Assembly: GCA_049972095.1 (NCBI GenBank)
Contig: JBMFKQ010000025.1
Coordinates: forward strand, 1 to 23,955
Direction: 5' to 3'
Origin: Elusimicrobiales bacterium
Lineage (GTDB): Bacteria; Elusimicrobiota; Elusimicrobia; Elusimicrobiales; UBA9959
Length of the DNA stretch: 23,955 nucleotides
Made by a program: the position numbers. Below, piece after piece: positions 6,001 to 12,000 of this stretch. Positions within the stretch are counted from its first letter, which is position 1, and each line of letters opens with the position of its first letter.

Positions 6001-9000
6001 CCATCCCCTGCAGTAACAGCTGAGATAAGAAATAAACTTGAGAAGGTTGTTAAAAATCTTGCTGAAAGTGCGAACTATCATGGTCTTGGCACTGTTGAGT
6101 TTTTACTTGATGAAAAGAAGAACTTCTATTTTATGGAGGTGAATACGAGGCTTCAGGTAGAACATCCTGTTACTGAGCTTATAACGGGAAGTGATCTTGT
6201 TAGACAACAGATACTTATAGCTCAGGGTTATGAGATGGATATAAAGCAGGATGAGGTGGATAATTTTAGAGGGCATGCAATAGAGTATAGGATAAATGCT
6301 GAGGATTGGCAGAAAGGCTTTATTCCATCTGTAGGTATTATAGAGGAGCTACGACTTCCGCTTGGGAATGGTGTTAGAATAGATACCCATATATATCCAG
6401 GATATAGAATACCACCTTTCTATGACAGTATGCTTGCAAAGCTTATAGTCTGGGGGATTGATAGAAATCAAGCAATATCAAGATCAAAAAGAGCACTTGA
6501 GGAGTTTAGGATAGCAGGTGTTAAAACGACAATTGATCTTCATCAGCATATAGTTAATGATGAGAACTTTATAACATCAAGGATTTATACGAAATACCTT
6601 GAGGAGTTTATCACTCGAATTCTTTCAAAATGACTAAGAGGATATCATTGAGAAGTTTGCTTTTTAAGATTAACACCCTTAGAAAGAGTGGTAAAAAGAT
6701 AGTTTTTACAAATGGGTGTTTTGATATAATCCATGCAGGGCATATAAAGCTTTTTGAAAGATGTAAAAAACTTGGTGATATAGTGGTTGTTGGGCTTAAC
6801 AGTGATAAATCAATTAAAAGACTTAAAGGGCCAACAAGGCCTATTAATAGCCTTTCAGACAGAATAAAAGTCCTTTCAGCAATAGAGTATGTTGATTTTA
6901 TAGTGGTTTTTGACAAGGATACCCCTTACCACATAATAAAGGCAATAAAGCCTGACTTTCTCGTTAAGGGAGGGGATTACAGAGTTAATGAGATAGTTGG
7001 AAGAGAGTTTGCAAAAATGGTTGTAAGAGTCAAACATCTTAATGGCAGATCAACAACAGGTATAATAAGAAAGATTGAAAAAAGGTTAAAATAAATAATA
7101 CAATTTATTATATGGCAGATATATTTGACAAGGTGAAAGAGTTTACTATTGTTAAAGAGCTTAAAGCAAAGGGAATATATCCTTATTTTAAAGCCCTTGA
7201 GAGTGAGCAAGCACCAGAGGTTTATATAAAGGGTAAAAGATTCATAATGTTTGGTTCAAATAACTATCTTGGACTTGCTAATGATCCAAGGATGAAGCAG
7301 GCTGCAAAAGAGGCTATAGAAAGATTTGGAACAGGTGTGGCAGGTTCAAGGTTTCTTAACGGGAATACCGTTCTTCACGAGGAGCTTGAGAAAAAACTTG
7401 CCAGATTTAAAAAAAGGCAAAGAGCTCTTATATACGCGACAGGTTATCAGATGAATGTCGGTGTTGTTTCAGCTCTTGCAGGTCCTGATGATATTGTTAT
7501 TGTTGATAAGCTTGACCATGCCAGTATAATAGATGGTTGTAGAATGAGTGGAGCTGAGATAAAGAGATTTAGGCACAACGATGTAAATGACCTTGAAAAG
7601 ATTCTTAAAAACACCCCAAAATCTAAAGCTAAACTCGTTATAGTTGATGGTGTTTTTTCTATGGAGGGGGATATTGCACCTTTACCTCAGATTGTTGAGG
7701 TGTGTAAAAGATATGGCGCAAGGATTGTTGTTGATGATGCTCATGCAACGGGTGTTCTTGGAAAAAATGGAAGGGGAACATGTGAATACTTTGGACTTGA
7801 AAATGGAGAGGTTGATCTTGTTGTTGGCACATGTTCAAAGACTTTTGCCTCGGTTGGTGGCTTTGTTGTTGGAGATAAGGAGATTATTGATTTTATACAA
7901 CATACCTCCAGATCGATGATATTCTCGGCAGCCCTTCCACCTGCATGTGTTGCCTCAATTTCAAAAGCAATTGACATCATAAAGGCTGAGCCTGAAAGGA
8001 GGAAGAAACTCTGGGATAACTCAAGATATCTTCTTGAGAGATTTAAGAAGATGGGATGCAGAATAGGTCCAACCCAAACCCCAATAATACCTGTTATGAT
8101 AGGGGATAATGAAAAAACATTTACACTGTGGAGAATGCTTTTTGAGAATGGCATATTTTCAAATCCTGTTATAAGCCCTGCAGTTCCACCAAAACACACC
8201 CTAATAAGGGTTGTTGTTACAGCTACGCACACAAAAGAGCATCTCGATAGAGCCCTTGATATATTTGAGCACTGTTACAAAAAGGTGATAAAGGGTGTGG
8301 GGGATTGATTTTAAATGAGGGTTAGAGAAGCAGAGATCAAAGAGTTTATTGAATTCCCTTATAATCTTTATAAAAGGACAACTCAATGGGTTGGTGATCT
8401 CAAAACAAATGTTATTTCACTTCTTTCCTTGTCTCATCCTTTCTGGAAAAAAGCAGAGAGAAAACTTTTTGTTGTAGAAGATTTAGGAAAGATAAAGGGG
8501 AGAATTGCTGCGATAATTAATCATGCTTATAATGAGTTTTGGAATGAGAGGTGTTGTTTTTTTGGTTTTTTTGATGTGGAAAATGATTTGCGTTTAGCAT
8601 CCCTTCTTTTCAGTGAGGTTGAAAGATATGCTGCATGTAAGGGGATGAGGATTCTAAGAGGTCCTGCAAACCCATCGAGCAACTATACATGGGGTCTTCT
8701 TGTTGAGAATTTTGAACTTCCAAATCGTATAATGATGCCTTACAATTTTCCTTATTATGAAGGGCTTATTTTGAAAAATGGATATGTTAAAGAGAAGGAT
8801 CTATATGCCTTTGAGTGGAAGGCGTCAAGCATGTCAGTTTTTAGTAGTGATTTTATTGAAAAGATAAGGAGGAGAAACTCTGATGTAGTTATAGAGAATG
8901 CTGATCTTTCACACTTAGAACGAGTGTTTGATGATGTTAAAAGTGTCTATAACAAGGCGTGGGAGAATAACTGGGGATTTGTGCCGATGAGCGATGATGA

Positions 9001-12000
9001 GATCAGGGTAATGGCCCAGGAGCTAAAAACAATACTGAAAAACGATTATCTCATATTTGCAAGGAATAAAAAAGGAGAAGCGGTTGCTTTTTCACTTTTG
9101 CTTCCTGATTTTAATTATGCCCTTTCTGTTGTTAGGGGAAGAATAACACCATTAAATTTTCTGCCTTTTCTGTGGCGATATCTGTTTGGTATAAAGGGTG
9201 GAAGGATGCTTACACTTGGTGTTAATAGAGAATACAGAGGAAGGGGTATAGAGATTCTTATAATAATGAAGGCTATTGAGATAGTAAGGAAGCTTGGATG
9301 GGAATGGGCGGAGCTGTCATGGACTCTTGAGGATAATATAAAGATAAACAAGACAATAGAAAGATTTGGAGGCAGGCTTTATAAAAAATACAGAATATTT
9401 AGGAAGGATATATGATTTTTAAGGATTGTATTTGTCTGCAAAGAAAATGTTTAAAAGATAAGAAGTATCATTAAGAATCTTTTGAAAAATCTCAGATATA
9501 TCTGTTATTACAAAAAATTTAGATAAAAAACTGTAAAAAAAATTTAACAGAGGTCTGTTATAATCTTGTTTATGAAGATTGTTTCAGATCCTAAAAAGAG
9601 TGGTATAAAACCAGAAACAGGGACTTCACCTTCAATAAGAGGATTGTAGTGGATGAAAAAAATGATGATAGGAAGGAGGGCTTGATTGTGGAGGGAAAAC
9701 ACCTTGAATACGATGAGGTAGAGTTTGAGAGAAGCCTTCAGATATACTCTAATCTGCTTAAAAGCTTCTCAGAGTTTCTCAAATTGATCTCAGATGCATC
9801 TTATATACATGCCTTAGATACTGTAAGATATATGTCATCTCTGATCTATAATGAGATTTCTAATCCCTATTTCCCAATTTTTCTTAAATATCTTACTCCA
9901 AGAAACTATGTTATATCTCATTCAGTTAATCTTGCATATTTGAGTGGTTTGGTTTCATTATTTTGTTGTAAGCTTAGTGAAAGCGAGATAAAGAATAATA
10001 TAATATCGGCTCTCTGTGTTGATATAGCAATGCCCCTTTATAGAAATATATATGAGCAAGAAAAACAGCTAACATCATATGAAAGGGAGGTGATAAAATC
10101 TCATGTTAAAGAAGGGGCTGATATCTCAGAAAAGATATTTGCGTTTGAGCCGGATATCAGAGATTATGTTTATAATACGGTTATGAACTCCCATGAGAGA
10201 TGTGATGGAAGTGGATATTTTTCAAAGAAATGTGATGAGATACCACTTTCTTCCCTTATTATTGGGATGTGTGATTTTTATGAGGCTCTTTCAAAGCCAA
10301 GGGCTTGGCGAAGACGGTTTAGTGAGCCAGAGATTATAGATCTTTTGAGCACAAAATACAAAAATCTCTTTGCTCCTCAGCTATTTAAAGGGCTTGTTTC
10401 ATCCCTTGGAATTTATCCAGCTGGTTCGTTTGTTAGGCTTTCAACTGGAGAGATCGCGGAGATTATCTTTGCAAACAGGGATAAAATGCTAAAACCAACT
10501 GTAAAAGTTATTGCAGATCCATCTTTTCATATCGTTAAACCATATATTCTAAACCTTATGGATTATCCTCTTATATCAGTGGAGTCGTATATAAAATGGC
10601 AGGATATTGAATCAAATAATCATGAGCTTATGGCAAAAATTGAAATGGAAAGGTTATGGATAGATTGGTAAGGGTTTTAGTTATATCAGATGAGGAATAT
10701 GTCAGAGAAAGGGTTGGAGGAATACTTGATGAGCTTAAGCTTAATTATGATCTTGCTTGTAATGCAAAAATTGCAAAAGAGAAACTCCTTTCTCCCTATG
10801 ATATAGTTATCTCTGATGCCCTCATATGGGGGATGAGCGCTATTGAGGTTGTTGAGAGTGTGAAAAAGATAAGAAAGGATGTATGTATTATAGTGATGTG
10901 TGATCTATCAACGACGGATATTGGAGAAAGGTGCATAAAAAATGGTGCTTTTGCTTATGTTATAAAGCCACCAGACATAGAAAGGATAAAAAGCTATGTG
11001 GAGCTCTATCTCATTACAAAAAGCGCCTGAATCAACAGCTATTATATGTATTGAACCTGTGCTTAAAGAAAAGATAAAGGAATTAAGGAGGGTTCTTATT
11101 TGTGGGGAAAAGAGGCTTTATGAGAAGGTTTATGAGATGGCTGCTATTGAGCAGTCAATTAAAGGTTTCTATTCCGCTTTTTATGAAAAGCTTGGGGTTT
11201 ATGAGATATTACTCAGAAGACTTAAAAATAGATTTTGGGGCATAAAGGATGATGAAAAAAAAGAGGAGAAAAAAGTTTTTTATGTTGATGAGGGGATGCT
11301 AAAGAAGGTTTTTAGAAAGCTTGCAAAACTTTATCATCCAGACAGATACAAGAATATAACGGATGAGGAAAAGGCTTTTTTTGAGATGAGGATGTCAGAG
11401 GCAAATAAATATTTTGAAAAGAAAGATTTGAATGCCCTTCTATCCATGCTTGAGCAGGCAATGGCTGAGGTCTGTGATGATATGCCATCACATCAAAGAA
11501 TAAGGATACTTGAGCTTAGAATCTCTGCTGTTAAAGAGCTTAATGAAATATATCAGGCAAAGATTGATGAGTTAAAAAGGAATGATATATACATACTTAT
11601 GAGAATGAAGCCCGATGAGAGGGAAAAGGAGATAGCAAGAAAAAGAAGACTTCTTCTTTCTGAGATAGAAATATATTCAAAGCTTGTAAGAGCAAAGCTT
11701 TAAAAGTTGTAAAATATTTTTTTATGATTGTTAAGAAAAGCAAGGGATATAGGATTGCCTTTCTTGTTTCTTTTCTTTTTTCTATATACAGTTCTGCTAT
11801 ACTTTTTATGCATTTTCAGGCAAGATATGTAAATGGCTTTCTTTTAAATGATTTTAGAATAATTGCATCTTTAAGCTCTATTTGGGATGATAAAACTGTT
11901 TCTCAGATATCAGCTATAAGAGGGGTAAAGAATGTTAGGGTTGTTAAATCAGAGGAGCTGATGAAAAGGCTTGAGAGTGAAGATAAAGAGCTCTATTTTT

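Follow-up and report, generated by a model that had tools for sequence, protein, structure and literature searches.

The window analysed here, a stretch of 23,955 nucleotides from an Elusimicrobiales bacterium, harbours two open reading frames which may encode consecutive enzymes of ceramide synthesis (Table 1). The survey's finding had placed a serine palmitoyltransferase (Spt) homologue and a ceramide synthase homologue next to each other on the forward strand of this stretch, and both reading frames were recovered there, with a spacing of 6 bases. Upstream lies rfaE2, coding for an enzyme of LPS core sugar synthesis, which reaches 181.6 bits with its family model (cut-off 181.5), and the 3' end of accC overlaps rfaE2 by 4 bases. 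Both genes are genomic context outside the claimed pathway, accC being of interest for fatty-acid supply only, and the same holds for the two genes downstream.

Table 1. Genes of the locus (coordinates in the window) and two further genes of the same genome (G000) discussed in the text
Feature	Position	Strand	Product size	Remarks
accC, biotin carboxylase of acetyl-CoA carboxylase	5239-6633	+		TIGR00514, 647 bits (cut-off 626.5); context
rfaE2, D-glycero-beta-D-manno-heptose 1-phosphate adenylyltransferase (RfaE domain II)	6630-7094	+		TIGR02199; context
spt, alpha-oxoamine synthase (g01097, P0001)	7112-8308	+	398 aa	PLP lysine K243
bcerS-type N-acyltransferase, tandem-GNAT, YghO/CC_1154 family (g01098)	8315-9415	+	366 aa	putative
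HD-domain protein	9649-10671	+		Pfam HD_5; context
Receiver-domain protein	10656-11030			downstream of the HD_5 gene; context
Extended SDR, CerR candidate	G000:C1:56836-57780		314 aa	outside the window, separate contig
BioF/Kbl-type alpha-oxoamine synthase	G000:C19:17909-19030			outside the window

Of 29 loci examined in the order, 18 have an rfaE2 homologue immediately 5' of spt; in the remaining 11, the upstream flank is shorter than about 260 bases. The order accC-rfaE2-spt-GNAT recurs in locus L049 (genome G042) and accC-rfaE2-spt in L054 (G007), while a homologue of the HD_5 protein is encoded 3' of the GNAT gene in most loci of the bacterium's own family. A scan of positions 1900-9800 returned 33 promoter-like sites (25.3 ± 5.3 expected) and 8 terminator-like sites (4.5 ± 2.3 expected), and no inference on the transcription unit was drawn from these counts.

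In the NCBIfam and PDB comparisons, g01097 scores higher with Spt than with BioF, Kbl, HemA, CqsA or cysteate acyltransferase, in agreement with the survey's description of it as an Spt homologue. Its top NCBIfam model is NF047600, serine palmitoyltransferase of the CFB type (543.4 bits), followed by TIGR01825 (447 bits); the bioF and Kbl models give 421 and 414 bits against cut-offs of 426 and 460, respectively. Among solved structures, the top match is the Spt of Sphingobacterium multivorum (3a2b/8guh; 425 bits, E 2e-126, residues 5-390), ahead of BioF/Kbl (327 bits), Kbl (287 bits) and two cysteate acyltransferases (254 and 248 bits); CqsA, an enzyme of autoinducer synthesis, is also among the matches. 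None of the curated NCBIfam Spt equivalog cut-offs is reached by g01097, neither that of NF047600 (640 bits) nor those of NF047599 (419.9 versus 500) and NF047603 (361.2 versus 670), and the protein is therefore not named Spt under NCBI's rule. Presumably, these models derive from sequences of other phyla.

The catalytic lysine of g01097, K243, lies in the motif G-T-C-S-K-T (G-T-x-S-K), and H136, D208 and H211 align with the PLP anchors His138, Asp210 and His213 of S. multivorum Spt. Of the PLP and serine contact residues described for the latter enzyme (PMC10196870), N50, Y52, A77, G78, S79, F81, H136, S183, D208, A210, H211, T240, S242, K243 and F271 are preserved in g01097, and M271 is replaced by I270. 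Two further differences from S. multivorum Spt are C241 for F242 and N51 for S53. Most of the preserved residues are shared throughout the alpha-oxoamine synthase (AOS) family, and they are no proof of specificity for serine. Taken as a whole, the comparison supports the assignment of g01097 to Spt of the Bacteroidota/delta-proteobacterial type, predicted to condense serine with an acyl thioester. The genome also encodes the separate BioF/Kbl-type enzyme mentioned by the survey. This paralogue on contig C19, 42% identical to g01097, scores 545 bits with TIGR01825 and 482 bits with Kbl, above the respective cut-offs of 535.4 and 460, and takes the BioF/Kbl role. Its neighbours, dnaE, a receiver protein gene and ispH, are uninformative as to role.

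The product of the second gene, g01098, has no row in NCBIfam and only a sub-threshold GNAT match in Pfam, in line with what had been reported. With YghO of Escherichia coli it shares 29% amino acid sequence identity along the full length (365 aa, E 1e-54, 172 bits), in agreement with the survey. The AlphaFold model of the protein (pLDDT 95.3, pTM 0.91) has a tandem-GNAT fold, and residues R308-G311 of its C-terminal half form an RGxG acyl-CoA motif. The best solved fold match in Foldseek is glucosamine N-acetyltransferase 5kf1, and the top matches are all tandem-GNAT amine N-acyltransferases; 5kf1, MAB_4324 and MshD share the two GNAT halves (TM 0.60-0.71, E down to 4.6e-17), but are only 10-16% identical to g01098 in sequence and act on other substrates. 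No members of the YghO/bCerS family were found among the solved structures.

YghO had been regarded as a possible counter-example, coming from a species taken to make no sphingolipid. This objection loses its force, as yghO belongs to a sphingolipid-type cluster of five genes in E. coli strains without the IS5 insertion of K-12. Its neighbours in E. coli R12 code for an acyl-AMP ligase, a reductase of the NAD-epimerase family, an ACP and a protein named Spt by PGAP, and PMC9386255 lists YghO as a homologue of Caulobacter CC_1154 (bCerS). YghO is the putative N-acyltransferase of this cluster. The bCerS-type assignment of g01098 is thus supported by comparison with a putative enzyme, YghO, and not with the characterised bCerS of Caulobacter. 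A single protein of 780 aa (P0160) in which an Spt-type AOS domain (NF047600, 470 bits) is fused to a GNAT of the g01098 type was also identified.

The survey had identified no ceramide reductase CerR, an enzyme of the NDUFA9-like extended SDR type; the genome does contain a CerR-type candidate, an extended SDR encoded on contig C1. This SDR and the reductase of the E. coli R12 cluster are reciprocal best hits (E 8.7e-20, next match 3.9e-5; in the reverse search 2.2e-18, next 3.6e-6), at an identity of only 23-25%. The two proteins have the same top ranks in NCBIfam, HpnA-like and then OleD, the latter being a lipid 3-oxo reductase. The SDR matches Epimerase and 3Beta_HSD in Pfam and possesses the NAD(P)-site motif GxxGxxG (G7-G13) and the catalytic S105/S106 and YxxxK (Y132-K136), all aligned in the E. 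coli reductase. Its gene is unlinked to spt in the own order and is placed after a TolQ/TolR/TonB-like cluster. Judged by eye, the N-terminus MKIIVTGG opens directly on the Rossmann motif, whereas the CerR of Caulobacter is described as periplasmic (PMC11087976).

As regards known systems, the predicted pathway is of the Bacteroidota type. In addition to the similarities listed above, the locus shares with S. multivorum the lack of a dedicated ACP gene beside spt; the differences are the three substitutions and the NF047600 score. In sphingolipid-producing Bacteroidota, however, the three ceramide genes are said not to be near one another (PMC11334938), whereas spt and the GNAT gene are adjacent here. 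The dihydroceramide cluster of Caulobacter and E. coli B consists of spt, acpR, aasR, epi (CerR) and aca (bCerS/YghO), and three of these five genes, those for Spt, the GNAT and the reductase, have homologues in the genome. Although g01097 is 40% identical to E. coli Spt, it belongs to another Spt subgroup, and the gene order differs as well, being reductase-spt-GNAT in other orders of the phylum and spt-GNAT with the reductase elsewhere in Elusimicrobiales. No acyl-AMP ligase/AasR homologue was detected in the own genome (96.5% complete) with the E. coli query at E 0.001, the only AMP-binding match being a weak one (32 bits, C17), and no ACP-sized gene is located between rfaE2 and spt. The locus differs from a Rhodobacteria-type Spt system, dependent on AcpR and AasR, in that these searches revealed no dedicated ACP or acyl-ACP synthetase accompanying spt.

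The distribution of the genes was followed in two sets, one of 61 genomes from the order and one of 121 from the phylum, 43 of the latter belonging to the order; related genomes in these counts are non-independent samples. Every one of the 61 order genomes, that of the bacterium itself among them, has a relative of g01098, which extends the smaller set searched before. Adjacency in relatives, which the survey had left unchecked, is well preserved: spt is followed directly by the GNAT gene on the same strand in 59/61 genomes of the order, and a GNAT gene lies directly 3' of spt in 99/121 genomes of the phylum. Spt orthologues were found in 104/121 phylum genomes, and the 15 genomes without a GNAT match are devoid of an Spt orthologue too (15/15). 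An SDR orthologue lies immediately 5' of spt in 39 of the 61 Spt-bearing genomes outside the order, with Pfam confirmation in four loci with unrelated flanks. In the order itself, the SDR is linked to spt in 0/43 genomes of the phylum sample, yet it is kept in 43/43 at E 1e-58 or better. Several genomes deviate: G062 and G076 have the SDR and the GNAT without Spt, in G007 and G090 Spt is accompanied only by a GNAT paralogue of 27-29% identity, and G106 and G066 have Spt and the GNAT with no SDR match at E 1e-15. The survey's attribution of the pathway to the whole order thus agrees with the adjacent pairs, but not as a feature particular to the order: given the adjacency in 99/121 genomes and the reductase-Spt-GNAT operon outside Elusimicrobiales, the trait is phylum-wide.

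We consider it likely, with a probability of roughly 75%, that g01097 and g01098 are the first two enzymes of a bacterial ceramide pathway, the third being encoded elsewhere in the genome. The homology, conserved gene order, gene fusion and co-occurrence described above form the basis of this reading, and the three caveats originally attached to it (CerR, YghO and adjacency) are largely resolved in its favour. The most serious competitor, though an improbable one, is that the three enzymes start from a different amino acid than serine and build a sphingolipid-like lipid, N-acylation and reduction following as before: a sulfonolipid of the capnine type (from cysteate), for instance, or a lipid with a 1-deoxy or glycine-derived base. 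The fold and catalytic residues are common to AOS enzymes of differing amino-acid substrates, the cysteate-C-fatty acyltransferases of sulfonolipid synthesis (CapB/SulA) have the same chemistry and are followed by the same kinds of steps, reduction and N-acylation, and they form a branch inside the Spt-related family (PMC13692747). Moreover, g01097 stays under the Spt model cut-off (543 versus 640 bits), and 1-deoxy and sulfur-bearing ceramides are abundant from anaerobes according to Ding 2024. However, g01097 is far closer to Spt than to the two solved cysteate enzymes (425 versus 254 and 248 bits), and it is Spt-type at the remodelled positions, retaining S79 and N115 (Ser81 and Asn117 of Spt), where the cysteate enzyme has Ala82 and no Asn117 feature, the mapping being that of the text of PMC13692747 and not of an alignment of our own.

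Somewhat less probable still is that the genes yield something other than a bulk envelope ceramide, such as a minor N-acyl amino-ketone or amino-alcohol that serves in signalling or elsewhere, or that the pathway is incomplete in this genome because the unlinked SDR does another job. The position of the SDR within a Tol-like envelope cluster, the genomes retaining two of the three genes, and the autoinducers made by related AOS enzymes such as CqsA are all compatible with it. The retention of the SDR throughout the order, its physical linkage to spt in 39 genomes elsewhere, and the neighbourhood of spt-GNAT in the order, which includes the fatty-acid gene accC and the envelope gene rfaE2, argue against it. 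That g01097 might be a plain BioF or Kbl, placed by chance beside an unrelated acetyltransferase, seems very remote and is already disfavoured: the bioF and Kbl scores are only slightly under their cut-offs, but the C19 paralogue exceeds the BioF/Kbl cut-offs, the adjacency is preserved phylum-wide, an AOS-GNAT fusion exists, and the GNAT and Spt are jointly absent from 15 genomes.

In the proposed ceramide pathway, Spt, with PLP on K243, would join L-serine to a long-chain acyl thioester, yielding 3-ketodihydrosphingosine, the tandem-GNAT would acylate its amine, and the SDR would reduce the 3-keto group to give dihydroceramide. The sequence of the last two steps, acylation and reduction, is disputed even in Caulobacter. 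Because no dedicated ACP or acyl-ACP synthetase was found, the acyl donor may be acyl-CoA or a housekeeping acyl-ACP. We infer these substrates, the product and an envelope location from the genes. As LpxC is present in the genome, any ceramide lipids would exist alongside LPS, not in place of it.

Chemical proof of sphingolipids in bacteria exists for few groups, chiefly Bacteroidota, some Proteobacteria and Myxococcota, and claims beyond these are based on gene surveys. The earlier statement that sphingolipids are unreported from the phylum stands in so far as no paper combining Elusimicrobi* with serine palmitoyltransferase was found in the literature searched; the phylum lists of Stankeviciute 2022 and Ding 2024 were outside coverage, and an earlier mention there is possible. 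"Elusimicrob" is absent from the main text and preprint of Ding 2024. The matches listed for Elusimicrobi* with sphingolipid appeared, by title and start of abstract, to be gut-microbiome or metabolome correlation studies, together with one taxonomy essay whose sphingolipid passage concerns Bacteroidetes. Among the matches listed for Elusimicrobium minutum and lipid, there was nothing on the polar lipids of this species.

Elusimicrobiota branch deeply, are mostly uncultured and have very small genomes. Judging from their genes, they probably make sphingolipids, and the upkeep of three ceramide genes in genomes of 1.0-1.6 Mb speaks for the lipid being important to the envelope. Cultured members of the phylum carry the gene set, which opens the prediction to routine lipidomics. 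With its three genes, the compact operon also offers a handy minimal set for reconstitution in another host, useful for deciding between acylation-first and reduction-first. More tentatively, and with the odds somewhat against it, ceramide synthesis may be old and nearly phylum-wide in Elusimicrobiota, encoded by a compact reductase-spt-GNAT operon without a dedicated ACP that was rearranged in Elusimicrobiales, spt and the GNAT gene entering the accC-rfaE2 envelope array and the reductase gene the Tol-like cluster. If so, the reduced genomes G062 and G076, having lost spt, would acylate or reduce an imported long-chain base, and the outer membrane of these small-genome diderms would hold both LPS and sphingolipid.

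Both neighbouring genes to which a ceramide pathway had been ascribed were found as plus-strand ORFs on contig C25 of this genome (1.44 Mb, 58 contigs, 96.5% complete), and the GC content of the pair is in line with that of its surroundings. Judging by sequence, the product of the first gene, P0001, is an alpha-oxoamine synthase (AOS) of the serine palmitoyltransferase (Spt) type. Its top NCBIfam model is the CFB-type serine palmitoyltransferase NF047600 (543.4 bits, under the 640-bit cut-off), followed by TIGR01825 (447 bits), bioF (421 bits) and Kbl (414 bits). Among solved structures, the Spt of S. 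multivorum scored 425 bits (E 2e-126, residues 5-390), compared with 327 bits for Thermus BioF/Kbl, 313 for Sphingomonas Spt, 287 for Kbl, and 254 and 248 for two cysteate acyltransferases. Alignment to S. multivorum Spt, with residues named as in PMC10196870, revealed that P0001 retains the PLP/serine contacts N50, Y52, A77, G78, S79, F81, H136, S183, D208, A210, H211, T240, S242, K243 and F271, while Met271 of S. multivorum Spt, where the structural contact is made by the main chain, corresponds to Ile270. N115 of P0001 is the counterpart of Asn117, a feature which, according to PMC13692747, is present in Spt and absent from the cysteate enzyme. Since most of the conserved contact residues occur family-wide in AOS, they argue for a functional enzyme but do not demonstrate a preference for serine. 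The separate BioF/Kbl-type enzyme reported for this genome was confirmed on contig C19: it is 42% identical to P0001, exceeds the BioF/Kbl cut-offs (TIGR01825 545 bits, Kbl 482 bits) and reaches just 389 bits with the Spt model, the two sequences being clearly differentiated paralogues.

Coordinates of the pathway candidates and of other features (window positions unless a contig is given)
Feature	Position	Strand	Remarks
YbgC-like acyl-CoA thioesterase	1506-1943	-	Tol-Pal-associated model 101 bits, below cut-off
Zinc-ribbon/TPR ORF	3662-5272		precedes accC
accC	5239-6633	+	same-strand run with the spt pair
RfaE domain II heptose-1-phosphate adenylyltransferase (rfaE2)	6630-7094	+	between accC and spt
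spt (P0001)	7112-8308	+	ORF, 398 aa
GNAT (P0002)	8315-9415	+	ORF, 366 aa; 6 bases 3' of the spt ORF
HD-domain protein (HD_5)	9649-10671	+	3' of the GNAT gene
HD_5 and receiver genes together	9649-11030		3' of the GNAT gene
GGDEF cyclase	17042-18466
Peptidase_C11 (clostripain-family) protein	18540-21980		1146 aa; domain N-terminal, ~700 other residues without family match
BioF/Kbl-type AOS	C19:17909-19030
CerR-like SDR	C1:56836-57780		314 aa; match to E. coli cluster reductase

The accC-rfaE2-spt-GNAT(-HD) array is recurrent within the order Elusimicrobiales: of 29 loci, 18 have an rfaE2 homologue 5' of spt, and the remaining 11 have less than ~260 bases of upstream flank. Because the accC ORF overlaps the preceding one by 34 bases and its biotin carboxylase domain match begins at residue 16, the real accC start may be situated further downstream. 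Within the family to which this genome belongs, the position 3' of the GNAT gene is conserved for the HD gene; its product bears a weak likeness to c-di-GMP phosphodiesterase response regulators, and the gene is overlapped by that of a stand-alone receiver protein. Contigs of two runs from two studies, both labelled as hot springs metagenome, contained 93% and 65% of the words sampled from window positions 6600-9500, and the first run may represent the source sample of the genome.

The second protein of the pair, P0002, had been described as lacking Pfam and NCBIfam assignments, and family-model searches agreed, yielding no NCBIfam match and a sub-threshold match to GNAT. In the AlphaFold model of P0002 (56-sequence alignment; pLDDT 95.3, pTM 0.91) the nearest solved folds identified by Foldseek are tandem-GNAT amine N-acyltransferases, with glucosamine N-acetyltransferase 5kf1 on top (E 4.6e-17, TM 0.60-0.71) and MAB_4324, a clavulanate tandem GNAT and MshD among the others; the solved-structure matches included no member of P0002's own family.

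The claimed 29.3% identity of P0002 to E. coli YghO was borne out (29% over 365 residues, E 1e-54). This likeness had been held against a ceramide synthase, E. coli not being known for sphingolipids, yet YghO was rejected as a counter-example. In K-12 an IS5 element adjoins yghO (L033, NC_000913:3122000-3138000; insH9). In E. coli R12 (locus L034), yghO is followed by genes for a fatty acyl-AMP ligase, an NAD-dependent epimerase/dehydratase-family protein, an ACP and a PGAP-named spt, the last scoring 600 bits on NF047599 (cut-off 500). Moreover, PMC9386255 lists yghO/ECD_02850 as a homologue of Caulobacter CC_1154, an acyl-CoA N-acyltransferase needed for dihydroceramide, and ECD_02852 as a homologue of the reductase CC_1164, and describes the E. 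coli B Spt as active with its acyl-ACP. Given the R12 cluster and this listing, YghO can be placed in the bCerS family, and the likeness, measured between P0002 and YghO, therefore backs the ceramide-pathway reading. The R12 cluster is missing from K-12; at the site of the K-12 IS5 element R12 also carries lptG/lptF paralogues. Of 5426 complete E. coli genomes, 4549 contain yghO DNA, a count of yghO DNA alone.

The survey's finding contained no ceramide reductase CerR, a gap for which a candidate can now be put forward. With the reductase of the E. coli cluster as query, the genome gave one clear match, the SDR on contig C1 (56839-57774, E 8.7e-20; second match 3.9e-5), and the reverse search of the R12 chromosome returned the cluster reductase on top (2.2e-18; second 3.6e-6). 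The two proteins share their top NCBIfam models (HpnA-like, then OleD 2-alkyl-3-oxoalkanoate reductase) and the GxxGxxG and S...YxxxK motifs, at a low identity of 23-25%. Here and in genome G042 the SDR gene lies 3' of a cluster of ExbB/TolQ-, ExbD/TolR- and TonB_2-like genes and of one or two genes for small membrane proteins (L035, C1:55411-59274, and L050 of G042).

The presence of P0002 relatives in all 26 genomes of the order searched earlier holds in a larger sample, as 61 of 61 genomes (own included) encode the GNAT as well as an orthologue of Spt (58-100% identical). The adjacency of the genes in relatives, previously unchecked, is conserved: by coordinates, 59 of the 61 have the GNAT gene immediately 3' of spt and in the same orientation, spt of G055 being truncated by a contig end. 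The exceptions, G007 and G049 of one genus, have just a GNAT paralogue of 26-29% identity elsewhere, and tblastn detected no GNAT remnant next to spt in G007. Among 121 genomes of the phylum (completeness at least 80%), the GNAT was found in 106 (E 1e-20 or better) and the Spt orthologue in 104, the latter by a bimodal score split (orthologues at least 406 bits, BioF/Kbl-type paralogues at most 378 bits); the 15 genomes without a GNAT match all belong to the 17 that lack an Spt orthologue. The two genes adjoin in 99 of the 121, are on separate contigs in G070, G092 and G113, and only a distant GNAT occurs in G007 and G090.

The SDR was detected in 107 of the 121 genomes (E 1e-15 or better). 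In other orders, 39 of 61 Spt-bearing genomes have it immediately 5' of spt in the same orientation, which gives a reductase-spt-GNAT operon; in four such loci (L045-L048) the Pfam order is Epimerase/3Beta_HSD, Aminotran_1_2 and a family-less GNAT, with differing flanks. In Elusimicrobiales, all 43 genomes of this sample have the SDR (E 1e-58 or better), adjoining spt in none. The 15 genomes devoid of GNAT and Spt show no SDR match in 12 cases, a weak one in two (E 4.5e-19 and 1.6e-16) and a good one in G079 (86% complete). Counter to the pattern, G106 and G066 possess spt and GNAT without an SDR match, and several more genomes have weak or partial SDR matches alone. As the genomes are related, these counts describe a pattern and are no statistical test.

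In two genomes of one genus (~1.1 and 1.3 Mb; L051, G076:C1:853000-864000, and L052, G062:C11:101000-111000) the CerR-like SDR adjoins the GNAT gene, with gaps of 240 and 696 bases; tblastn detected no trace of spt in between, and the best AOS is just of BioF/Kbl level. It looks as if the first pathway enzyme was lost here and the later two were kept. Away from spt, some genomes encode an additional GNAT of the P0002 family with 39-40% identity, or a distant member (25-29%), at G004:C2, G001:C11, G043:C35, G015:C16, G007:C18, G017:C21, G025:C72, G049:C4, G075:C1, G077:C57, G081:C26, G085:C67 and G090:C2; the distant GNAT is the sole copy in G007, G049 and G090.

In an exhaustive representative search with the GNAT, 776 clusters had a representative that matched at E 1e-30 or better. 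The 150 best of these include P0160 (780 aa), in which an AOS domain, with CFB-type Spt as top model (470 bits), is fused to the GNAT, and P0192 (940 aa), in which the GNAT is fused to an AMP-binding acyl-activating domain; both fusions fit an acyl transfer coupled to Spt. A PilZ-GNAT fusion (P0246, 494 aa) is a hint that c-di-GMP control exists in some lineage.

PMC9386255 divides Spt into a Bacteroidetes/delta-proteobacterial subgroup and a Rhodobacteria one, which needs a dedicated ACP and acyl-ACP synthetase. P0001 matches the former best. A search of its genome for the acyl-AMP ligase of E. coli was negative at E 0.001, and there is a single weak AMP-binding match. In the pathway proposed from homology, Spt would condense serine with an acyl thioester to 3-ketodihydrosphingosine, the GNAT would N-acylate this product, and the SDR would reduce the 3-keto group to give dihydroceramide; in Caulobacter the order of acylation and reduction is debated (PMC11087976, PMC9386255). 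LpxC is present above its cut-off, hence LPS is presumably also made.

By sequence, the gene set is that of the ceramide pathway known from other bacteria; for this phylum we found no report of it. The claim that sphingolipids are unreported from it stands insofar as no paper joining Elusimicrobi* and 'serine palmitoyltransferase' was found in the literature searched; the phylum lists of Ding 2024 and Stankeviciute 2022, which lay outside this check, may already name Elusimicrobiota. According to Ding 2024 (PMC11334938), 38 Black Sea phyla are inferred to have Spt-like genes, and nine phyla are cited from Stankeviciute 2022, so one more phylum would not greatly surprise a specialist. The present analysis adds that all three genes occur as a set, which is conserved across the phylum and can take the form of a compact operon; it also settles the objection drawn from YghO, and the prediction is directly testable in culture.
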